A stretch of 27,874 nucleotides of DNA. Origin: a virus (Duplodnaviria; Caudoviricetes). The notes beneath the pieces are model-generated. The model did not search any database. It had not been told where the DNA came from and saw nothing but the letters and a program-made list of their open reading frames with translations. Numbering within the stretch: position 1 is the stretch's first letter; each line of letters starts with the position of its first letter. The DNA is taken from positions 1 through 27,874 of IMG/VR virus record IMGVR_UViG_3300044708_000154. One strand, written 5' to 3'. The translations under genes were made by a program, and so were the position numbers. Below, piece by piece: positions 1,718-16,404 of this stretch.

Positions 1718-1906
1718 TCAGGATTCCTTTCCGTACGACTGACTGCGAATGCGTGAGAATCGTGTGCGCTCCTCAGCTTCCGCCGCTTGCTTGGCGCGCC
1801 TTGCCAGGATCTCGGGCGGCACGTTGCCGCTCGCGGGACATCCAGGGTTGACGCAGTGAGCGCCAGTGATCGGGCAACTACACTCAGTGCAGATATGTAG
1901 GTTCAT
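1718..1906 (-). CDS. Small Zn-finger protein
   Basis: CTEC...CVNPGC; GGGGAG RBS. Confidence 0.8.
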   Translation of the reverse strand: MNLHICTECSCPITGAHCVNPGCPASGNVPPEILARRAKQAAEAEERTRFSRIRSQSYGKES

Positions 1907-1915
1907 TGTTCTCCC

Positions 1916-2011
1916 CTATTGGCTCGCCAATTGGGCGAAGCTGAAAATCACTACGGCGATTAGTACGACGACTAGGGCACAATCTAGGGTGTCGCGGCGG
2001 TGAGGGGACAT
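1916..2011 (-). CDS. 31-aa single-pass membrane peptide (MSPHRRDTLDCALVVVLIAVVIFSFAQLASQ)
   Basis: Translated by hand; fills the gap; hydrophobic stretch. Confidence 0.6.
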   Translation of the reverse strand: MSPHRRDTLDCALVVVLIAVVIFSFAQLASQ

Positions 2012-2014
2012 GGA

Positions 2015-2236
2015 CTAGCCCTTGGTCTCGAATTCGGCAATCACTTCTCGCCTTCCTTGGCCATTCGAGCCGTCAGTCTTGATGACCAGGAAGTAGTCCT
2101 TGCCGTTGTAATGCGAGACGCTGACGTGGACTCCGCCATTCCATCCATCAGCAGCCACCTGGAGACCGGAAGCCTTACTGCCGAGCCGCGAAGCGCTACC
2201 ACGCTGACCGCTGATTACCGCCCGAAACTGTGCCAT
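2015..2236 (-). CDS. Phage hypothetical protein (73 aa, MAQFRAVISGQRGSASRLG...)
   Basis: GGAGG/GAGG RBS; GxRGxASRLG...GW pattern recalled from phage early proteins. Confidence 0.85.
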   Translation of the reverse strand: MAQFRAVISGQRGSASRLGSKASGLQVAADGWNGGVHVSVSHYNGKDYFLVIKTDGSNGQGRREVIAEFETKG

Positions 2237-2261
2237 GACCTCTTCCTCCGAGTTAGGTTTT

Positions 2262-2313
2262 CCTGCGTCCAGTCCTGGCCACGTCCTGAGATATGGCCAG
2301 GGGTTGAGGCAGG
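2262..2313. other. Long imperfect intergenic hairpin
   Basis: CCTGC/GCAGG and CCTGGCCA/TGGCCAGG arms. Confidence 0.75.
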
Positions 2314-2388
2314 CTAGGCGGTCGTTTCGGCTTGCATCCTGCCGAGCTTTTCCAACAGCTCTCTCCTCCGGCGCATTGACTGGCGGTC

Positions 2389-2583
2389 TCAGCGCTGCGT
2401 ACGGTTCAAGCTCTCCCAAGTTTGCAGGGCGCGGCGAGCCTGCGACCAAGCCTCCTCGCGCACCTCGCTCTCAAGCCATGCGCCACACCCCTGAGGGATG
2501 CCTTCGTTCTGCGCGAGCTGCTGGGAGACGATTGCGGTGTACAGCTGAAAGTGACGGGTCTTGCGGGTGACAATTCCGAACAT
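2389..2583 (-). CDS. First gene of the leftward operon, hypothetical; may extend through TGA to TAG at 2314
   Basis: GGGGAG RBS; frame stays open for 24 codons after the TGA. Confidence 0.7.
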   Translation of the reverse strand: MFGIVTRKTRHFQLYTAIVSQQLAQNEGIPQGCGAWLESEVREEAWSQARRALQTWESLNRTQR

Positions 2584-2654
2584 GATGCACTCCCCTTCGT
2601 GCTGCCCTGCGTTTCCACCCCTCCCAGGGCTACTTACCCGCCTTCAGTGAACAT

Positions 2655-2690
2655 AGATTAGCACAGCGTACCAGGATGTCAAGGGGTTAG
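2655..2690 (-). promoter_or_regulatory. Strong leftward sigma70-type promoter
   Basis: TTGACA (2682-2677), 16 nt spacer, TGnTAATCT extended -10 (2660-2655). Confidence 0.85.
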
Positions 2691-2776
2691 GCGAAGAAAG
2701 TTTAGGGAGGTTGATGCGGAGGTAAGTGCGGGGAGGAATGGGGGTTAGGCGGGTTTGACGCCACCAGGTAGGGGGA

Positions 2777-2974
2777 TTACGAGATGTCGTGAGGAAGCTT
2801 TATCGGCTCAAGCGGGCGCTCATAGACAGCCCGCAATCCCTCCTCTAGCACCTCAGCGAAGGGGCGAGACAGAGACGCCTCGAACGCTTCCGCTTGAGCC
2901 GCATCGAGGGGGAGGCTAAGCAGGTAGTGGTAGCCGCTGCCAGGCAGAACTTGGCTTGGTTCGTCGTCGCACAT
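2777..2974 (-). CDS. Hypothetical protein (65 aa)
   Basis: GGAGG RBS upstream. Confidence 0.6.
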   Translation of the reverse strand: MCDDEPSQVLPGSGYHYLLSLPLDAAQAEAFEASLSRPFAEVLEEGLRAVYERPLEPIKLPHDIS

Positions 2975-3006
2975 GACTAAGGCTTCCTCCGAGATCTCGT
3001 AATGTG

Positions 3007-3228
3007 CTAGGTACCCTCAGACACCCACGGTCCGCCCTGCGGATGACGGCAGAGAGGAATCCAGAATGGCGGGATGTCCCAAGTCCACGAAGTCACCCTG
3101 CCATCAGGGCGCGTACCGACATGGCAATTGGTCTCGCACGCGCATGTCTTCCAGAGCGCCTTGCAGGTAGCGCAGCGCTCGTCGGTATGCCTTGACTCCT
3201 GGCGGATCGACTCTAGGTAGGTGCGCAT
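3007..3228 (-). CDS. Cys-rich hypothetical protein (73 aa)
   Basis: CATC/CAC motifs; TACCAT -10-like box 8 nt before ATG. Confidence 0.5.
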   Translation of the reverse strand: MRTYLESIRQESRHTDERCATCKALWKTCACETNCHVGTRPDGRVTSWTWDIPPFWIPLCRHPQGGPWVSEGT

Positions 3229-3369
3229 GGCTAGGGATGGTAACCTATTGACATGGGTAAGGGAAAGAACCGAAACAAGTCCGTCCGCTCCCCAGAGGAG
3301 CACCGAAGGATCACTGCGCACATGGCGACTCGCTCCGAGGTTCAAATCGGCCCGTCAGGCGGTGAGCCA

Positions 3370-3627
3370 ATGAATCCGGCCGAGTGCCGCCTCTTCCTGC
3401 GACTCATTGGCTATCGGAACTACCAGGACTACCTCTATTCGCCGCTCTGGTTCGAGATCCGCACCAAGGTAATGAAGAAGGCCGGAAAGCGCTGCGAATA
3501 CTGCGGCTGTCGAGCCGTCCAGGTTCACCATGAAATCTACACGCGCGAGAACCTGTATGGAGTGACGCTATTCGGTCTGTACGCCGTTTGCGTCCATTGC
3601 CACGAGTTGCGGCACGGCCTGACCTAG
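3370..3627 (+). CDS. HNH endonuclease (alternative start 3253)
   Basis: YxxYLxSxxW...R...CxxCG...VHH..Y...L..VCxxCH...H signature. Confidence 0.9.
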   Translation: MNPAECRLFLRLIGYRNYQDYLYSPLWFEIRTKVMKKAGKRCEYCGCRAVQVHHEIYTRENLYGVTLFGLYAVCVHCHELRHGLT

Positions 3628-3950
3628 GTCCGCTTTCTCCGCCAGTCGATTAGGTGCCTTGGTACGCCCCTGGCCAGCTCGGCGGCTCGCCTCTCGCGTT
3701 GCATGCGCTCAGACAGGGCAACGTGTGGGTTCCCCTCAGTTTCGCGGCGCATGGTCGCCCGCGCCTCTCGTACCGCCAGATGCTGCTCCGCCGGTAGGCA
3801 CCTCTCCCAGTCCGCCATGGGGCGAATCGAGTCGTCGTCAGGGGTCGGCTCCTGAACGGCCGAGGGGCTGTCTTTCGCGCGCCTGAGTGCCTTACGGAGC
3901 GCTTGGTAGTTCTGGACGTTCCTAGAGGGATCGGAGACGAAATCAGACAT
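3624..3950 (-). CDS. Hypothetical protein (108 aa)
   Basis: Lies downstream of the leftward promoter at 4034-4063; helical, charged composition. Confidence 0.6.
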   Translation of the reverse strand: MSDFVSDPSRNVQNYQALRKALRRAKDSPSAVQEPTPDDDSIRPMADWERCLPAEQHLAVREARATMRRETEGNPHVALSERMQRERRAAELARGVPRHLIDWRRKRT

Positions 3951-4033
3951 GAAGGACTAGAACTAGAAATGAAAGAAGAAGGGAGGGCATGGTTCGATTT
4001 CGGATGCTGTCACGCTAACCAACCAGGAAGCGG

Positions 4034-4063
4034 AAGCTATCGAAACTACCTAGGTAATGTCAA
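4034..4063 (-). promoter_or_regulatory. Leftward promoter with palindrome TACCTAGGTA in its spacer
   Basis: TTGACA-18 nt-TAGCTT; palindrome at 4047-4056. Confidence 0.6.
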
Positions 4064-4363
4064 ATGGCCTAATGAGGCGTAAGTCTAGGTTGGGGAGGGA
4101 GGGTGTAGCTAACCCTCTCCGCCCGCCGTGTCGCCATCCTGCCGAAATGCCCCGAAGCCCACGGGGTGCAACTTTCCAGCGGCATGTGTCACTCCAGCCA
4201 CACCTAGCCATCTACAGGAGCGAATGTAGCCTCAGGGCGCCACATGAATTCCTCTATCTGCAATGCCTCCCCGCCATGTGCTACCAACCGTATCCCCCGA
4301 TAATGCAACGTGCTCTGTAAGCCACCACTACAACTGCTTGATTCCACGTGACTTACAGGTTTC

Positions 4364-4391
4364 ACCGCCGATAACGGCCATTATGTTGCGT
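4364..4391 (+). other. dif-like XerC/XerD recombination site
   Basis: ACCGCCGATAA-CGGCCA-TTATGTTGCGT compared with E. coli dif GGTGCGCATAA-TGTATA-TTATGTTAAAT. Confidence 0.65.
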
Positions 4392-4420
4392 TTGAAAGTG
4401 GCATCTCACCTACCAGCGGA

Positions 4421-4651
4421 ATGGACCGAGTCGCCGACCACTTCGCTACCTAGGTAGGGTAGCCAGCATGTGACCTAAACTGTTAGGAGTTAAGGAGGAA
4501 GGACGTATGCACCACTAACTCATTCATTCTACAGGCCGGCCGCCTCACATGTTAAGGTGACAAGGTGGTCACGTGTCTGGCCACCCACCCGGTCTGAAAG
4601 CGAAGCGGCGACTCGGTAACGTAGCCTCCCCTCCGAAGTGGTCCATTTTTT
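4421..4651 (+). ncRNA. Candidate structured ncRNA or single-strand DNA element (strand uncertain)
   Basis: 12-bp perfect outer IR, five inner stems, ends in a T6 run. Confidence 0.5.
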
Positions 4652-4710
4652 CCATCACCAAACCCCTCGACTGACTGGACCAATTGCAGGAATCCGGTCG
4701 TTCGGCATGC

Positions 4711-4748
4711 ACAACCTCTTGACATCCGACCATTCAGCCGTTCATTCT
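4711..4748 (+). promoter_or_regulatory. Promoter for leaderless mRNA
   Basis: AACCTC-TTGACA-18-CATTCT-7 nt-ATG. Confidence 0.75.
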
Positions 4749-4755
4749 CTTGTCC

Positions 4756-5040
4756 ATGCCTACCGACAACCCCAATCCCCGCACGCACGTAGTCGCCCCA
4801 TTGACCTTGGTCCTCGACACGGTGAATGAGATGTCCCTCGTGGACGCGGCTCTAGCCTGGGTAACCAAGGAAATGGAACTCTTCAAGGAACAGCACCCAG
4901 ACTTCCTGGACCCCGATCGCGACGCAGCCGTGGCCAGCCTCAAGGAAAAGTGGGCAAAAGAGGACCGGCGCATCACTGACGCCCTCAACGGCGCCGGGGT
5001 GGCGAAGGGAGACAAGGTAGTCTTCGCCCCCGTGGACTAG
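4756..5040 (+). CDS. Hypothetical protein (94 aa), leaderless
   Basis: High-GC3 codon bias; promoter immediately upstream. Confidence 0.85.
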   Translation: MPTDNPNPRTHVVAPLTLVLDTVNEMSLVDAALAWVTKEMELFKEQHPDFLDPDRDAAVASLKEKWAKEDRRITDALNGAGVAKGDKVVFAPVD

Positions 5041-5051
5041 TCGACGGCCGT

Positions 5052-5089
5052 CTAACCACTTGACATCCACCCCTCCCTCCAACCAGACT
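5052..5089 (+). promoter_or_regulatory. Promoter for leaderless mRNA
   Basis: AACCAC-TTGACA-18-CAGACT-6 nt-ATG. Confidence 0.8.
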
Positions 5090-5095
5090 CCCTCC

Positions 5096-5431
5096 ATGCT
5101 CAAGACCAAGTGGCAGTCCGCCAACGTCGAGGTCACGGTAGCCGTCCAGTGCAACCTGTGCGGAGAGGAGTTCCCCGTCGAGGCGGACGACGGGTTGCGA
5201 GCCCAGGAGGTCCATCTCCTGGAGGCCGAGGGAGGGTTCGCCGGGGTCTTTCCGCCCGACCTGATCCGCTTCCGCTGGCACTGCTGCGGTCCGTGCCTAC
5301 GCAAATGGCTGCATGCCTGCGCGGTTCCTCCGGAGTCGTTCGAGCGCTCACTGTCGATCGGCAACACCCTCAGGCCGATCTCATACGACACGTGGTTCGG
5401 GCCACAATCCACTGGCAACCCAACCCCTTGA
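5096..5431 (+). CDS. Zn-binding hypothetical protein, leaderless
   Basis: CNLCG...CGPC motifs. Confidence 0.85.
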   Translation: MLKTKWQSANVEVTVAVQCNLCGEEFPVEADDGLRAQEVHLLEAEGGFAGVFPPDLIRFRWHCCGPCLRKWLHACAVPPESFERSLSIGNTLRPISYDTWFGPQSTGNPTP

Positions 5432-5457
5432 CAACCAATCCACCCCGCCGGCATACT
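5420..5457 (+). promoter_or_regulatory. Promoter for leaderless mRNA and probably the downstream RNA cluster
   Basis: AACCCC-TTGACA-18-CATACT-6 nt-ATG. Confidence 0.8.
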
Positions 5458-5463
5458 CGGGCC

Positions 5464-5619
5464 ATGAGTGAGCCCGACCGCACGATCCTCTTCACGACTT
5501 GTGGGGCGCTGCTGATCGGAACTCTCGGCGCGTACCTGCTCGGTAACATCGGCGGTCTCTGCGGTTCGGTCATCGGTGCGATCCTTGGGTGCTGCTGCTC
5601 GGATTGCTTCACTGGGTGA
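5464..5619 (+). CDS. 51-aa membrane protein with glycine-zipper pattern
   Basis: GxxxGxxxG hydrophobic helices; leaderless start. Confidence 0.75.
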   Translation: MSEPDRTILFTTCGALLIGTLGAYLLGNIGGLCGSVIGAILGCCCSDCFTG

Positions 5620-5705
5620 GGAGACGCGGCGCCTCAGCTCTCCCGGTAGCGCCTCTACCTTGGCGAAATATGGCAAACCGGGGACTACTACTTGAAGCCC
5701 AGCAG

Positions 5706-5805
5706 TGGTCGCAGGAAGCGCGAGGAAATGCCGCCGGGAGGCACAACATCCTGGGTTGACGAAGGCGGGCGAGCGCCTTGGCGTCCTGGCAGCATCCTGC
5801 GACCA
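5706..5805 (+). ncRNA. Candidate tRNA-like four-way-junction RNA on an extended stem
   Basis: 11-bp perfect terminal IR TGGTCGCAGGA/TCCTGCGACCA enclosing three hairpins. Confidence 0.6.
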
Positions 5806-5820
5806 ACTAGTGGACTTCAC

Positions 5821-5897
5821 GGGCGAGTAGTTCAACCGGAAAGAACGTGAGTTTCCTAAACTCATGGATGGGAGTTCGAACCTCTCCTCGCCCTCCA
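5821..5897 (+). tRNA. tRNA-Arg (anticodon CCT)
   Basis: Acceptor GGGCGAG/CTCGCCC, D arm GTTC/GAAC, anticodon arm TGAGT-TTCCTAA-ACTCA, T arm GGGAG-TTCGAAC-CTCTC, encoded CCA. Confidence 0.95.
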
Positions 5898-5911
5898 ACC
5901 GACAGGACCCC

Positions 5912-6217
5912 ATGATCGACTACCTCCCAGACCCCGACAACCCAAACCGCCGCTTCAGCCTCTCCTACCAGGATCTCCGGGCCGAGCACGGGCGCATGGT
6001 CGCCCTGGACGACACCGCCTTCCTGGCCGACCTCCCTGCCGCCGCGCACCTGGCCTGCATCATCGCGTGGCTGAAGGAACTCGGGCCGAACGCCACGATC
6101 GGTGATTGCGGGATCGTCCATGAGCTGGTCCACCTCATCCACATGGGGCCGGACGGATCGACGACCTCGCTCGCCGAGATCCGGCAGTCCTTCGCGCACC
6201 TGCTGAGATTGGCTTAA
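5912..6217 (+). CDS. Hypothetical protein with HExxH motif (HELVH)
   Basis: AGGA RBS; codon bias; the ORF-track start at 5864 falls inside the tRNA. Confidence 0.85.
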   Translation: MIDYLPDPDNPNRRFSLSYQDLRAEHGRMVALDDTAFLADLPAAAHLACIIAWLKELGPNATIGDCGIVHELVHLIHMGPDGSTTSLAEIRQSFAHLLRLA

Positions 6218-6250
6218 CCCCTTGACAAACTCCTCGTCCTGGTTCAACCT
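6214..6250 (+). promoter_or_regulatory. Promoter for leaderless mRNA
   Basis: AACCCC-TTGACA-17-CAACCT-6 nt-ATG. Confidence 0.7.
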
Positions 6251-6256
6251 CTTGAC

Positions 6257-6793
6257 ATGAGCGAAGAGACCAATCCGAACGACGATGCGAGGAAGTACGA
6301 CCCGTTCACCCTCAGCCCGATTCTGAATCACCTCGTATCTCGTGCGGACAGAATCCTCCTGAAGATCCTGATCGAGAAGGGAGTACTCGATGAGTGGCGG
6401 GTCGAGAGGGCCTACACGGAGGCGACCTATCCAAGGGCTCAGCGGAGCGTGGCACGCCCTGGCGGCGCGGGTAGCTTTGGGCTCGGCTCGGATATCCAGA
6501 TCTCAAGGGCGATGGAGGCCGCAGGCTTCGCCGGCAACGATTACGCCTTTCTAGCCATGGGCGGCAAGGTCCACTTCCTTACCTACGCCGTATCGTTCCC
6601 TGGTGACGATCCGCTGACGGAGAAGGGGAACCGAGACTGGTCCCCCGAGATGCTCTCGCTGGCTAACGTCCTGCGAGCCAAAAAGCGCCTGAAGCGCTTG
6701 GCCGAGAAGGCGAACGCTGACCTGGAGAAGTTCGACAACGAGAACGAGGCTGAACTGGCGGTCATCGATCGGCTGTTGAAGGAGTCGGAGTGA
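6257..6793 (+). CDS. Hypothetical protein (178 aa), C-terminal coiled coil
   Basis: ORF length and codon bias. Confidence 0.85.
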   Translation: MSEETNPNDDARKYDPFTLSPILNHLVSRADRILLKILIEKGVLDEWRVERAYTEATYPRAQRSVARPGGAGSFGLGSDIQISRAMEAAGFAGNDYAFLAMGGKVHFLTYAVSFPGDDPLTEKGNRDWSPEMLSLANVLRAKKRLKRLAEKANADLEKFDNENEAELAVIDRLLKESE

Positions 6794-7035
6794 GCTTCTT
6801 CTCCATCCGGAACGCAAAGGCGGCCGGTTTCCCGACCTACATGATCGCCGAGATGGAGGCCCTGCTGCCCGAGCTGGACCAGGACCGCTGTCGGCATTGT
6901 GGCGCTGGCCTGAATCGGCAAGAGGTTCGAGACCCCTGGCACTTCACGGTGAGCACCTGGTGCGGCTCCTGCCGCGCCTTCGGGTGGACGAAGTCAGTGC
7001 GGAATCCGGCGCTGTTGGATAAGGAGGTTGCATGA
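6790..7035 (+). CDS. Zn-ribbon protein
   Basis: CRHCG...CGSC; GTGA overlap; GGAG RBS. Confidence 0.8.
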   Translation: MSFFSIRNAKAAGFPTYMIAEMEALLPELDQDRCRHCGAGLNRQEVRDPWHFTVSTWCGSCRAFGWTKSVRNPALLDKEVA

Positions 7036-7226
7036 CTGACCCCGCCCTCCAGTCCGAAATCCTCTCACTCCGCCAGCGCGGCCTGAATTACTCCGCCATC
7101 TCGCGCATCCTGCGGCGCAGCTTTCCGCCAGGTAGGCGTCCATTCAACATCTCCAGCACGGCGGTCCGGAAGATGTGTGAGGAGCCGGCGAGAGATTGCC
7201 GGCCGCAGGGAGGACGAGATGACTGA
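7032..7226 (+). CDS. Small HTH DNA-binding protein
   Basis: EILSLRQRGLNYSAISRIL...ISSTAVRK pattern; AAGGAGG RBS. Confidence 0.75.
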   Translation: MTDPALQSEILSLRQRGLNYSAISRILRRSFPPGRRPFNISSTAVRKMCEEPARDCRPQGGRDD

Positions 7227-7392
7227 GAACGAGCGCGACGAGCTGATCGGCTACTGGTGCGTCAAGTGTGGCGCTGCCGCCAAGTCTGTCAAGTTGATCT
7301 TGCACGACAAGGACTGCCCGGCCGATTCCTTCTTCAGGGCCGGCGTTCGGACAGTCAAATTGCAGGCCGCCCGGCTGGAGAGCGAGCCATGA
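7219..7392 (+). CDS. Small Zn-binding protein
   Basis: CVKCG...HxxxCP; GGAGG RBS. Confidence 0.75.
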   Translation: MTENERDELIGYWCVKCGAAAKSVKLILHDKDCPADSFFRAGVRTVKLQAARLESEP

Positions 7393-11829: not shown

Positions 11830-12021
11830 ATGTACTGCGACATTCTGGGATTTCTTCGTGAAGCAAGAGCCGCCGCGCAGATAGAGTCGGAGAAGTCTCG
11901 CAGCCGAGAGCTATCGCTGGTCTTGACGAAAATCGATGAGGCGCTTCTTTGGCGACAAGAAGACATGAGACTTAAGGCCCCGATCGTGAACGAATGCGGC
12001 ATCGACCCGGCGGAGTCTTGA
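11830..12021 (+). CDS. Acb2/Tad1-like helical-hairpin protein (candidate anti-defence sponge)
   Basis: SRELSLVLTKIDEALLW matches the RExSLAxTKLEEAxMW motif; GAGGAG RBS. Confidence 0.65.
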   Translation: MYCDILGFLREARAAAQIESEKSRSRELSLVLTKIDEALLWRQEDMRLKAPIVNECGIDPAES

Positions 12022-12782
12022 TGGCGCTCGAAGATCAGCTAGAACCAACGAAGGCGCTCCTGATCGTCAAGGAGGACCCACGGAGCGACATCATCGCCGC
12101 CCTGGGGGATGGGCGCACCCTCATTCGCCCCGAGATCTCTGGCGACCGCCAGCGCATCCGCAGCGGCAAGGTGATCAAGAAGGGTCCGCAGGGTAAGTAC
12201 AACCCCGGCACGCGGGTTCTCTTCAAGGCGTACGCGGCCACTCTGGTTGACAGCGGCAGCGGTCCGCTACTGTTCATCGACTCAGGGGACGTGGACGGCT
12301 ACCTGGACGGCGAGGAAGACCCAGATAGCGAGCCTGGACCGGACTGGGTTGAGCACATCATTCCGCCTCCGGGAGAGATCCTGGTGCGTCGCAGTGAGAA
12401 GCCGCTCATGTACGGGCGCATCCACAAGCCGGCTACGTCGAGTCATCTGGCCACCCGCTGCATGGAGGCGGAGGTGGTTGCGACCGACCCGCTGGACGAG
12501 GAGATGGTGAAGGCCTTCCCGGACGATGCTCACGTCCTTCTCTCCCCTGACGTCTGCCGAACGATCCAGCTCGACGTGCGCGGCGAGCATCTCCTGTCCC
12601 GCCTCGATCCGGACCAGATCATGGCGCACATCAAGGGCGACCCGACCGAGCTGCCGATCGAGATCACCCGCGACTACACCGGCGTGGCCGAGGATCTCCA
12701 GGGCTATGCCGACATCGACGAGCGTTTCGACGAAGGCGACCCTGCTGGGCCGCTCGGTGTCCCGAAGTATGCGGAGGCGTGA
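12021..12782 (+). CDS. Co-chaperonin with two tandem GroES (Cpn10)-like domains
   Basis: LEPTKALLIVK...GKVIKKGP...GTRVLFKAYA...LLFIDSGDV and IIPPPGEILVRR...GRIHKP...AEVVAT...DQIMAHI. Confidence 0.8.
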   Translation: MALEDQLEPTKALLIVKEDPRSDIIAALGDGRTLIRPEISGDRQRIRSGKVIKKGPQGKYNPGTRVLFKAYAATLVDSGSGPLLFIDSGDVDGYLDGEEDPDSEPGPDWVEHIIPPPGEILVRRSEKPLMYGRIHKPATSSHLATRCMEAEVVATDPLDEEMVKAFPDDAHVLLSPDVCRTIQLDVRGEHLLSRLDPDQIMAHIKGDPTELPIEITRDYTGVAEDLQGYADIDERFDEGDPAGPLGVPKYAEA

Positions 12783-13093
12783 TGAAGATGATCAAGAGGT
12801 TCATGGCCAAGGTGTTTCCGAAGAGTCCGTTCCACAAGCCGCAGTTCGGTCTCATTCACTGGGCTCGCCTGCACCAGCACTGCCAGCAAAAGGGCCATCA
12901 CTTGCTTAGCGAGGTGGCGAGGGAGGCGGGGAGCAAGAAGAGGTGGCGCTGGTGCAAGGAATGCCACAAGCTGGAATGGGGTACGGCCAACGTTGCCACT
13001 GGATCAGATGTCCATGCCTCGGAGATGCTCCTTGCCGGAGTCAGGCATAAGGGCATCGCCTCTGGCATTGCCTCAGTGAATATCGATGCCTAG
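12782..13093 (+). CDS. Hypothetical protein
   Basis: TGATG coupling; CxxxGH...CKEC. Confidence 0.7.
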   Translation: MKMIKRFMAKVFPKSPFHKPQFGLIHWARLHQHCQQKGHHLLSEVAREAGSKKRWRWCKECHKLEWGTANVATGSDVHASEMLLAGVRHKGIASGIASVNIDA

Positions 13094-13895
13094 TCCTAAG
13101 CCAGAAGGTGGTCTCGGCGCGCGCGTCAACGGACACTATGTCTACGGCAAGGTGTTCAACGCGCTCGAAGAGATCATCCTGCGCAATCCGGATGTCGAGC
13201 AGGTATGCGTGGTCCCGCACGGCACTACGAAGGCCGGCCGCTGGCTCTATGCGCTCGTCCTGTCGAAACCAGGCATTCTGGCTGGCGAGCGCCTCATGAA
13301 GGATCTGAGGGCCGCTGTCGAGGCCGAGGAGCGTTTCGAGGAGTGGGAGATCCCGAACCGCTGGCGGGCGGTGCGCTTCCTGCCGGAATACAAGACGCGG
13401 GAGGAGCGTCGTGCGCGCCTGAAGACGCACAAGTCCTTCTCGAAGTTCTACTACCCCGGCAAGCAGGCGCCTCTGCGCGGCGAGCGAGACTGGGAGAGCA
13501 ACACCTACTCGATCCGCCTGGTCGACCCGATCAACAGCGTCCAGTTCGAGGGTGCCCTGTGCAGGGTCAAGCACAAGAAGCTTTACAACATGCCCAAACT
13601 TGAGTTCGACCTGCGTCACCACCAGCGCCATGACTCGGCCACCGGCCAGTCCACCTGGAGGAAGAGCGCGGTCTGTCGCTTCTGGACGATAGACAAGAAG
13701 CTGATGGACAAGATCGACAAGATCGAGCGTGGCGCTCACGTCGTGGCGCGCGGTCGGGCGAACAACATCCAGCTCGGAGGCGTCGGCAAGGGAGCCCTGC
13801 ACACCGCCGTTCAGTGCCTGGAGTTCGAGGTGCTCAGCGACTTCCGGCGCGTTCCCCTGCACGACACCGATACGGTCTTCGAGAGGGCGCTCTAG
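13086..13895 (+). CDS. Fusion of AMP-binding-enzyme C-terminal-like domain and PriB/SSB-like OB fold
   Basis: Residues 13-100 and 149-251 match the two families by eye. Confidence 0.7.
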   Translation: MPSPKPEGGLGARVNGHYVYGKVFNALEEIILRNPDVEQVCVVPHGTTKAGRWLYALVLSKPGILAGERLMKDLRAAVEAEERFEEWEIPNRWRAVRFLPEYKTREERRARLKTHKSFSKFYYPGKQAPLRGERDWESNTYSIRLVDPINSVQFEGALCRVKHKKLYNMPKLEFDLRHHQRHDSATGQSTWRKSAVCRFWTIDKKLMDKIDKIERGAHVVARGRANNIQLGGVGKGALHTAVQCLEFEVLSDFRRVPLHDTDTVFERAL

Positions 13896-14578
13896 TGGCT
13901 CGCCGAGGCCGTCCGCCGAAGAAGCAGCACCCGGACCGGATCAACGGACGTCCGGAGGGCGAGGGCGACATGCTCGCTATCCTGGGCGACGACCGGGCCG
14001 AGATGGAGCTGGCCAGGCTGGTCAGAGACATGGTCCCGTACCAGGGCTTCCTGCTGATCCGCCCCCCGCTAGAGGTGCGCGTGTACCGCAGCCTGCGCAA
14101 CCTGGCCATCCTGGAGTGCCTGTTCCACCTGGAGGACGAGGATATCTGCCGGCGCCTCACCATGACTCAGGCCGCCATTGACCGCCTGCGTGAGAACCCG
14201 CACCACGAGATGATGCGGGGCAAGGTGGTTGAGGTCGTGGAACGGCTGGCGAATCCGCGCAAGATGGAGGAGTGGGCTGCGGACAACGAGGATCGCCTGT
14301 CCTTGGAACTGGTTAAGACGGCCCTGTACGACGGCAGTACCCGCGACCGCACCCAGGCCATGAATTCGCTCCTGGATCGCGTCTCGGCAAAGAAGGGGCG
14401 CGAGGACGGCCAGAGCGACTCCGGCATGCCTCACTTCCCTGCGGACGTCCTGAAGATGATGGAGATGGCGGCCTCAGTGACTGCCGTAGCCACCAGGGCG
14501 GCCATGCGCGGCGAGATCGACGGCTCAGTCCTCAACGTACCCAGGTACATAGGTAGCGGCGATACGCACGAGGAATGA
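13895..14578 (+). CDS. Putative terminase small subunit
   Basis: Directly upstream of TerL with ATGA overlap; N-terminal RRGRPPK, HTH-like segment and QAMNSLLDR motif. Confidence 0.65.
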   Translation: MARRGRPPKKQHPDRINGRPEGEGDMLAILGDDRAEMELARLVRDMVPYQGFLLIRPPLEVRVYRSLRNLAILECLFHLEDEDICRRLTMTQAAIDRLRENPHHEMMRGKVVEVVERLANPRKMEEWAADNEDRLSLELVKTALYDGSTRDRTQAMNSLLDRVSAKKGREDGQSDSGMPHFPADVLKMMEMAASVTAVATRAAMRGEIDGSVLNVPRYIGSGDTHEE

Positions 14579-16404
14579 GCAACATAATCCTGCCGGGCGC
14601 TCCATATGAGGCCCCTCCGCATCAGCTCCTCCCTCCGGACGCCAGGGAGTGGACGGAGAAGTACCGTCTAGGGGAGAGGGCCAAGGCGAGAGCGTCACTG
14701 CTCTACTTTCAGGTCGGCATCTGCGGACTCATCCCCACCGGCCCGCGAGGCGAGTCGCAGCTCTCGTCCTACCACGCCGATCAGTGCTCGTTCCTGGAAG
14801 GTCGCGACCCGCATCACCCCTGGCTGAGGGCGATGATGTGCTGCTTCCGAGGCGGCTCGAAGTCGGTCTCTGCTCGCGTGTACACCCTCTGGCGGTGCCT
14901 GGAGATCGTCAATCTCTCGGCCTACTTGGTCAGCAACTCAGACGACAACGCGAAGAAATTGCACTTCGAGAAGATCGTCCACCTCCTGGACAACAGCGAG
15001 AGGTCGGAGTACATACGCTGGATCTACAAGGACAGAATTCCGCCCAACCTAGTCGGGACCAACAAGGAGCGCCTGGAGCTGGTTAAGACTGACACCCAGG
15101 CCGATCCTGCCTTCACCTACGGCGGGATCTCGACCAGCAGGCGCGGTAAGCACCCCGACATCGTCCTGGCCGACGACCTTGAGGGCGCTGACGATCCGAA
15201 GTCTGGGGTCCAGTCCGAGGATGCCTACGCGGCCTATCAGTCCCTAATTCCCCTCATGCGGCACCTGGGCCACTCCCAGATCCTGGTTGTGGCCACCCCG
15301 ACCGAGGGTGACGACTTCTCGCTGGTCTGGCGCCTGCGGGAGAAGTCGTCGAAGGAGGTTCTCGACGCTACCGGCCACCCCTGGAACGGGGACGAGGACA
15401 ACGAACACTGTAGCCTGAAGATATTCTGGCGCCCGATCGTCGATGCGAACGGGAAGAGCGCTTGGCCGGAGCGGTTCCCAAAGCGAGAGATCGACCAGCT
15501 ACTTACGGAGCCGATCGCGAAAACTCAGTACCTCTTGAAGCGTGCGACCAGCGGCCTGTCCATCTTCGACATGGCCGCGATCACCAAGGGCTTCTACCGC
15601 TTCACGGAAGGCTCCAGGGACTCGATCTCCTACAGGGGCTTCCGCTTCGACCGAGACCGCGTGACGGACGAGGGGTACGTCCTGCCGGAGCCGTCGAATG
15701 CGGTCGTGAAGCTGAAGGCGCTGCGATACTTCCTGCACTTCGATCCGCTGCACAAGTCTAAGTCTCAGCGCAAGTCCGCCATGCGCCACCAGAGGCCGGC
15801 CAAGGCGGCAGCGGTTGTCGTCGGAGTCGCGCCGGATTCGCACGCGTTCGTGCTCGATTACTGGATCGGATCGGAAGAGATCGGGGAGCAGGCCAGTCAG
15901 GTTTTTCGCCTGTACCGCAAGTGGCAGCCGCACGTGGTCACGTCCGAGGCCATCGGTGCGCAGGTCTGGTTTAAGGCGTTCATCGAGTCGCGGGAGATGG
16001 GGGACCCGAACTGGTCCAGGCCCATGAGCGCCGGGTTCCTGAGTCCGTCCATCGCCATGCCGCGCCTGTCGTCCCGGCTCCAGGAGGCGGAGAAGGGTAT
16101 CGAGTCGAAGGAAGCGATCTTTCGCGAATCCTTAAGTCCGTGGTTCAACGTGGGCAGCCTGCACATCCGGGAGGATCAGCGCGAGCTGGTTTCGCAGCTT
16201 CAGGAGGCCGCCAACGAGGAGCACGAGATTGACCTGGTGGATGCCCTGGCGCAGGGCACTAGCGTATGGAAGCCGCCAACCGGCGACCTACTGGCCAGGG
16301 AGTGGGCCGAGCGCAGAGCCTTCCACGAGGCGTTCAAGCAGCAGAAGGGCGGCTCGACACTCAGCCGTACCGGCTTCAAGTCCTCCGGCTGGTCTTCTAC
16401 CTAA
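14575..16404 (+). CDS. terL: Terminase large subunit
   Basis: Walker A FRGGSKS, Walker B GKHPDIVLADDLE, VVATP, WPERF, nuclease residues HFDP and DLVDALA. Confidence 0.95.
   Translation: MSNIILPGAPYEAPPHQLLPPDAREWTEKYRLGERAKARASLLYFQVGICGLIPTGPRGESQLSSYHADQCSFLEGRDPHHPWLRAMMCCFRGGSKSVSARVYTLWRCLEIVNLSAYLVSNSDDNAKKLHFEKIVHLLDNSERSEYIRWIYKDRIPPNLVGTNKERLELVKTDTQADPAFTYGGISTSRRGKHPDIVLADDLEGADDPKSGVQSEDAYAAYQSLIPLMRHLGHSQILVVATPTEGDDFSLVWRLREKSSKEVLDATGHPWNGDEDNEHCSLKIFWRPIVDANGKSAWPERFPKREIDQLLTEPIAKTQYLLKRATSGLSIFDMAAITKGFYRFTEGSRDSISYRGFRFDRDRVTDEGYVLPEPSNAVVKLKALRYFLHFDPLHKSKSQRKSAMRHQRPAKAAAVVVGVAPDSHAFVLDYWIGSEEIGEQASQVFRLYRKWQPHVVTSEAIGAQVWFKAFIESREMGDPNWSRPMSAGFLSPSIAMPRLSSRLQEAEKGIESKEAIFRESLSPWFNVGSLHIREDQRELVSQLQEAANEEHEIDLVDALAQGTSVWKPPTGDLLAREWAERRAFHEAFKQQKGGSTLSRTGFKSSGWSST

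Follow-up and report, generated by a model that had tools for sequence, protein, structure and literature searches.

A phage protein that joins an adenylate-forming-enzyme lid domain to a predicted SSB/PriB-type OB fold

Why would a phage take the lid subdomain of an adenylate-forming (ANL) enzyme, known as an acetylation target and as the half that moves in a two-domain enzyme, and carry it at the front of a protein whose other half resembles a single-stranded DNA (ssDNA)-binding fold? The gene that raises this question lies in a linear virus sequence of 27,874 bases, about 38% complete, which we refer to in its whole length as the window (Table 1). The initial annotation knew of no described protein with such an architecture, and we likewise found no description of it, or of phage-borne lid domains, in a search of a paper library with few subscription journals. 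The architecture appears to be previously undescribed and is conserved, and its function is predicted from sequence comparison and structural models.

Table 1 Coordinates of the fusion gene, its parts and its downstream neighbours in the window.
Feature	Position	Strand	Description and support
Two-domain fusion ORF	13086..13895	+	ATG start, 269 aa; purifying selection; full-length relatives
ANL/acyl-CoA synthetase small C-terminal subdomain	13137..13424	+	Residues ~18-113; Pfam, NCBIfam, PDB profile, VIA, column comparison
Degenerate A10 site	13383..13403	+	Residues 100-106; Glu replaces the catalytic, acetylated Lys
Linker	13425..13514	+	Residues 114-143; lowest conservation in the protein; pLDDT <50 in the model
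SSB/PriB-type OB fold, predicted	13515..13841	+	Residues ~144-252; profile-profile comparison, AF2 model fold searches
Conserved C-terminal tail	13842..13892	+	17 residues, acidic and hydrophobic; predicted helix 261-268
Putative terS, by position	13895..14578	+	227-residue ORF; start overlaps fusion stop by 1 base
Terminase large subunit (terL)	14575..16404	+	phrog_38, E 5.3e-30

The fusion is real, old and conserved. The initial annotation had named a failure of either half to match its family, or an assembly chimera, as grounds for rejecting it; each half matches its family, and assemblies made independently contain the fusion as well. At 90% identity the protein clusters with a one-residue variant encoded on a 53,682-base contig and with a 91% variant from another source, giving three members including the record's own. 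In run X3, which comes from a different study of a soil metagenome, a 24,695-base contig covers positions 12450-15200 with 195 differences and no gaps, while overlapping pieces in run X4 cover 13095-13883, one of them spanning the linker; runs X2 and X5 yielded short pieces only. Across codons 1-178 the X3 contig differs by 36 letters, and the 30 that are listed fall in 28 codons, 27 of which are synonymous; for residues 13-101, 16 of the 17 changed codons among those listed are synonymous. The resulting dN/dS is 0.007-0.062, a range set by six unlisted letters, and the fusion gene is under strong purifying selection. Third-position G+C is alike in the fusion gene (0.84), terL (0.84) and the portal gene (0.83) and therefore gives no hint of recent import. 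Further upstream, the X3 relative has 214 bases at 12236-12449 swapped for 220 unlike bases.

Members of the family are very rare. When 1,835,955,588 representatives were searched exhaustively with phmmer, four matches emerged, namely the query and three full-length proteins (P0006, P0007 and P0008) of 271-279 residues, with 41, 32 and 26% identity to the query. These three are putative phage proteins; the contig that carries P0006 has 72,307 bases, which is near the genome size expected from a record that is 38% complete and is a hint only. Together with the two rows of the record's clade they form the five-member family used below. Between distant pairs the lid domain is as well conserved (23-47% identity) as the OB domain (24-43%). 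Word-based homologue searches recovered the query alone with the full fusion protein and no match with its N half, and with the family profile they recovered three proteins among 8000 scored candidates of similar length; since P0006 was missed, this type of search under-reports the family. The fusion locus was not found in viral, metagenome or genome contig collections, nor in cultured phages. This rarity, and the fact that P0006, P0007 and P0008 are each a single-member cluster from one source, would suit a chimeric assembly or a neutral accident of recent date. That explanation is ruled out, with negligible residual probability, by an independent contig that spans the gene without gaps, by the 91% variant from another source, by three co-linear relatives of the same length at 26-41% identity and by the low dN/dS.

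The N half carries an ANL small C-terminal domain, as had been proposed, and the domain extends to about residue 113, beyond the earlier boundary at 100, so as to include A10 (A8-A10 being motif labels for ANL enzymes). Pfam PF13193 (AMP-binding_C) matches residues 27-101 with E 3.7e-8, and all five family members exceed its 24.5-bit cut-off (34.6 for the record's protein, then 33.8, 39.4, 24.7 and 24.7 bits), two of them barely. NCBIfam models of fatty-acid CoA ligases match the N half with their C-terminal end. Against PDB sequences, the family profile retrieved 72 sequences at E up to 10; 59 of the best 60 are adenylate-forming enzymes matched in this region, led by acetyl-CoA synthetase (Acs) at E 3.9e-7. 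The VIA fold search aligns model residues 18-119 with ANL small domains at Z 8.1-8.2. The likeness to known small subdomains (PF13193; Acs 7MMZ and 2P2F, and the isolated Acs C-domain 4U5Y chain D) covers the entire A8-to-A10 segment and includes the structural Gly, Glu, Pro and Leu-Pro, here G21, E28, P90 and L99-P100. In a comparison of the five members with nine E. coli K-12 enzymes that have an AMP-binding_C domain, all from this one species, G21, P90 and P100 are kept in 14 of 14 sequences and E28 in 13.

What the fusion protein lacks is the enzyme. In the ANL enzymes the lid follows a large domain of about 400 residues with the ATP and substrate site, whereas here the lid is N-terminal, starting at about residue 18, and no such domain is present in the 269-residue ORF. 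The A10 lysine occurs in nine of nine E. coli ANL enzymes and in none of the family members, which have Glu, Glu, Asp, Arg and Arg, so the reported absence of both the large domain and the catalytic lysine was correct. P0007 and P0008 keep Pro-x4-Gly with Arg in the Lys position, and this Gly-Arg pair confirms the register of the A10 alignment; P0006 and the record's clade have neither the Gly nor the Lys, and constraint persists elsewhere in the domain. When the large domain and the lysine are missing, a lid domain is unable to adenylate (PMC4053389). The fusion protein is not an ANL enzyme and, with the A10 lysine absent, it is neither an enzyme nor a substrate of the Pat/CobB acetylation system. 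The family has in turn acquired four basic positions of its own: His or Arg at position 45 (five of five members, none of eight aligned E. coli enzymes), Arg52 (five of five against one of nine), Arg92 (five of five against one of eight aligned) and Arg or Lys at position 94 (five of five against two of nine). Judging from strand order, these four residues would sit together on the sheet. In the record's clade the lid domain carries a net charge of +1 and -1, like the E. coli ANL small domains (-1 to +3); the three distant members alone are higher, at +4 to +6.

The identity of the C half is a prediction from profile-profile comparison and structural models. It has no match in Pfam, PHROG or NCBIfam, none of the five members matches Pfam SSB (PF00436), and a C-half profile searched against PDB sequences gave two weak, unrelated matches. 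Language-model features (scores 0.90-0.92; 17 of 30 matches in the SSB set) serve as a lead only. When the five C halves are made into a profile, hhalign aligns it co-linearly, along 78 columns, to ten sequences, of which nine are SSBs and one is PriB of E. coli (prob 75.6, E 2.4e-5). The score of 34.1 lies above 60 of 60 column shuffles (maximum 16.6), 60 of 60 block shuffles (maximum 22.0) and the reversed profile (18.1), and thus above all 120 shuffles. Single sequences scored with an SSB HMM give a much weaker signal, with four of the five members above at least 297 of 300 decoys and P0006 among the decoys. An AF2 model built from the five family rows without templates has modest confidence (mean pLDDT 52.7, pTM 0.40, most of the OB core 65-89) and shows five strands with a helix between strands 3 and 4; a single-sequence model was uninformative (mean pLDDT 35). 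Foldseek searches of the PDB with the family model place PriB, SSBs and editosome OB proteins in the top rows, an editosome OB protein ranking first, and the named matches among the best 50 in BFVD are mostly phage SSBs. Among 48,161 chains, VIA ranks Rim1 highest (Z 12.9, rmsd 2.1, 91 aligned), with SsbB at 11.2 and PriB at 10.8; editosome OB proteins, which are protein scaffolds, reach Z 10.3-10.5 and unrelated OB folds about 10, within 3 of the top. These comparisons agree with the initial reading of the C half as a PriB/SSB OB fold, which we retain as predicted.

Residues invariant across the family in the OB fold are D147-P148-x-N150, F154-E155-G156, F199-W200 and G216-A217. PMC8509808 names Trp40, Trp54, Phe60 and Trp88 as the stacking aromatics of SSB and describes PriB as binding ssDNA as a dimer without these four aromatics and without a tail. 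In the hhalign register, W200, invariant in five of five members, aligns with E. coli SSB Phe60, while the positions of Trp40, Trp54 and Trp88 are not aromatic in the record's protein, which keeps one aromatic of four. The fusion protein is thus like SSBs (PF00436; Rim1 6CQK, B. subtilis SsbB 3VDY, E. coli SSB) in that its predicted five-stranded OB superposes at Z 11-13 and that three sequence features line up: the Asn..Gly pattern of the first strand, the aromatic residue equivalent to Phe60 and a Gly preceding strand 4. It is unlike them in the Pfam result and in the three missing tryptophans, in carrying an N-terminal extension of 140 residues that includes a foreign, folded domain, and in having no disordered linker with a DDIPF-type tip. 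The acidic tail is indeed absent, as the initial annotation had noted; the protein instead has a tail with a predicted helix, which ends in a hydrophobic residue or Gly and is partly conserved (12-59% identity between distant pairs). Leu258 and Val264 are invariant in this tail, which also has several acidic residues; it may take the place of the SSB tip or pack against one of the domains. With PriB (E. coli 2CCZ), a dimer that works with PriA and DnaT in restart, the fusion protein shares a tail-less OB fold without SSB's aromatic set, but its gene is phage-encoded and fused, whereas the E. coli PriB gene lies between rpsF and rpsR, and the family profile does not separate PriB (4.8 bits) from the nine SSBs (-0.1 to 8.3 bits). 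DUF35 proteins, which are OB-fold partners of acyl-CoA enzymes, offer another likeness, an OB fold tied to acyl-CoA metabolism. In contrast to them, the OB fold of the fusion protein ranks with SSB/PriB and its context is a phage head operon; no DUF35-titled structure is among the best 50 VIA fold matches, and no thiolase or ligase neighbour was recognised with Pfam among 17 queries scanned.

The fusion gene precedes the head genes, with the putative terS, terL, portal and major capsid genes downstream, and is not among recognisable replication genes. The proposed coupling to terS holds as far as the one-base overlap of stop and start codons, but the identity of the next gene found no terS support in Pfam, PHROG, NCBIfam or PDB searches; it may be a divergent small terminase. 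Moreover, between 11830 and terL there are five overlapping junctions in a row (28, 4, 8, 1 and 4 bases), so the coupling of the fusion gene to its neighbour is not special. The gene order is also seen in the X3 relative, which is 93% identical. Scans with terminase, capsid and portal recovered one further head-module relative, an IMG/VR contig that at positions 1772-7340 shares the arrangement portal-scaffold-capsid (50% identity in the portal, 62% in the capsid) and stops short of the terminase region; with this single relative of the head module, the lineage is thinly sampled. The closest terL from a cultured phage has 24% identity, across one third of its length. A scan of the 338 open stretches of this 38%-complete record found no second SSB-like protein, although the scan is weak, detecting the fusion gene itself only at E 0.2. 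Among the other genes, an HNH endonuclease gene lies at 3253-3627 (+; phrog_5200, E 1.1e-8) and a tRNA-Arg(CCT) gene, the sole Rfam match in the record, at 5821-5897 (+). Three genes upstream of the fusion, a 63-residue ORF (11830-12021, +) has a weak Pfam match to the Acb2/Tad1 hairpin (E 5.9e-4, 20.4 bits, cut-off 27) and also matches phrog_15810; it is a possible anti-defence nucleotide sponge. The 262-residue ORF at 11994-12782 (+) resembles two GroES repeats by eye, but we rejected it as a tandem GroES, as it has no Pfam or PDB support and 6 and 14 of 40 shuffles equalled its single-sequence hhalign scores.

How might such a protein work? The reading to which we give an even chance is an SSB/PriB-like ssDNA binder whose non-catalytic lid adds a basic DNA-binding or docking surface; it upholds, as the leading view, the initial proposal that an ssDNA-binding protein had captured a domain. 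By analogy with SSB and PriB, subunits would pair via the conserved first strand and ssDNA would stack on W200. The weakest step is that the basic positions would form one patch, standing in for the acidic tail and offsetting the three missing aromatics or binding a phage partner. This role for the lid is suggested because the lid is under selection with invariant arginines of its own, while the OB fold has lost most aromatics and the acidic tip; the equal conservation of lid and OB domains also speaks for it. The protein is likely to work like SSB or PriB, yet it fails on the SSB Pfam score, the aromatics and the tail. Against an SSB-like function stand the lack of a Pfam SSB match, the single retained aromatic, the net acidic C halves of P0007 (16 basic to 18 acidic residues) and P0008 (13 to 17), the closeness in Z of editosome and unrelated OB folds, the modest model and the place of the gene ahead of the head genes, and against a basic surface stands the lid charge in the record's clade, which is like that of the E. 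coli ANL domains.

Much of the same evidence could be turned towards an OB fold that does not bind ssDNA but acts as an oligomeric scaffold or RNA-binding module, making the protein an adaptor. The three missing aromatics, the two acidic C halves and the ranking of editosome OB proteins would fit such a role, and SSB-like OB proteins are reported to serve as relaxosome accessories (PMC12614216). We regard this as unlikely, since the best Z scores and the profile match go to true SSBs, W200 is invariant and the record's own C half is net basic (22 to 15). Genomic position instead invites a packaging accessory, an ssDNA binder at replication or recombination intermediates that docks on the terminase via its lid or tail. 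The placement directly before the putative terS and the head genes, the overlapping stop and start, and the repeated order in the close relative are in its favour; yet the overlap is one of five, the next gene is only putatively terS, and a single relative at 93% identity adds little. The link between replication and packaging suggested by the initial annotation is thus unsupported, and we consider a packaging role quite unlikely.

Host factors enter in two further readings. The lid could shield the OB fold from host defences that sense SSBs, or alter its surface to escape them. Phage SSBs trigger DRT4 through direct protein contact (10.64898/2026.10.21.760695), Retron-Eco8, Hna and DARNA are reported to respond to phage SSBs as well, and the Acb2/Tad1-like gene, though below cut-off, lies close by. 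However, nothing in the analysis ties the fusion protein to a defence system, strong purifying selection suits a housekeeping role better than an arms race, and the low-confidence linker shows no sign of packing on the OB fold, which together make a shield very unlikely. The other host-directed reading concerns acetylation. The initial annotation had considered a decoy, and PX4GK is the acetylation motif of Pat/CobB-regulated substrates (PMC11619455). This motif is absent in all five members, the record's own protein having Pro-x4-Arg-Glu, which weakens the decoy idea, and a substrate-type decoy is excluded by the missing lysine. A version survives in which the lid is a non-acetylatable pseudo-substrate that tethers or inhibits a host Pat-type acetyltransferase or an acyl-CoA ligase large domain, because an isolated Acs C-domain suffices for acetylation by Pat (PMC4053389) and because two members, the ones to which this version mainly applies, carry Arg in place of Lys after Pro-x4-Gly; the best PDB matches of the family profile are also Acs. 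Recognition needs the residues just before the Lys (PMC11619455), a loop that has drifted in the record's clade; this clade and P0006 have lost both Gly and Lys while the rest of the domain is constrained, and the invariant residues are the new basic ones rather than those of the A10 loop. We therefore hold this reading to be highly improbable. The same slender chance attaches to its more specific form, in which the lysine-less pseudo-substrate, tethered to phage ssDNA through the SSB-like half, captures the host acetyltransferase for acyl-CoA ligases, or a ligase large domain, at the replicating genome; if true, phage DNA metabolism would for the first time be seen coupled directly to the control of acetyl-CoA in the host.

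The fusion protein is small and open to direct testing. The weight of the finding is limited by rarity, with four clusters in all, and by the record coming from an uncultured phage. A new architecture would be added to the phage SSB-like proteins, a group that is sensed by several defence systems. The lid survives alone, without its lysine and with invariant residues of its own, in members that are only 23-31% identical, which suggests that part of an enzyme was exapted for a task other than catalysis.
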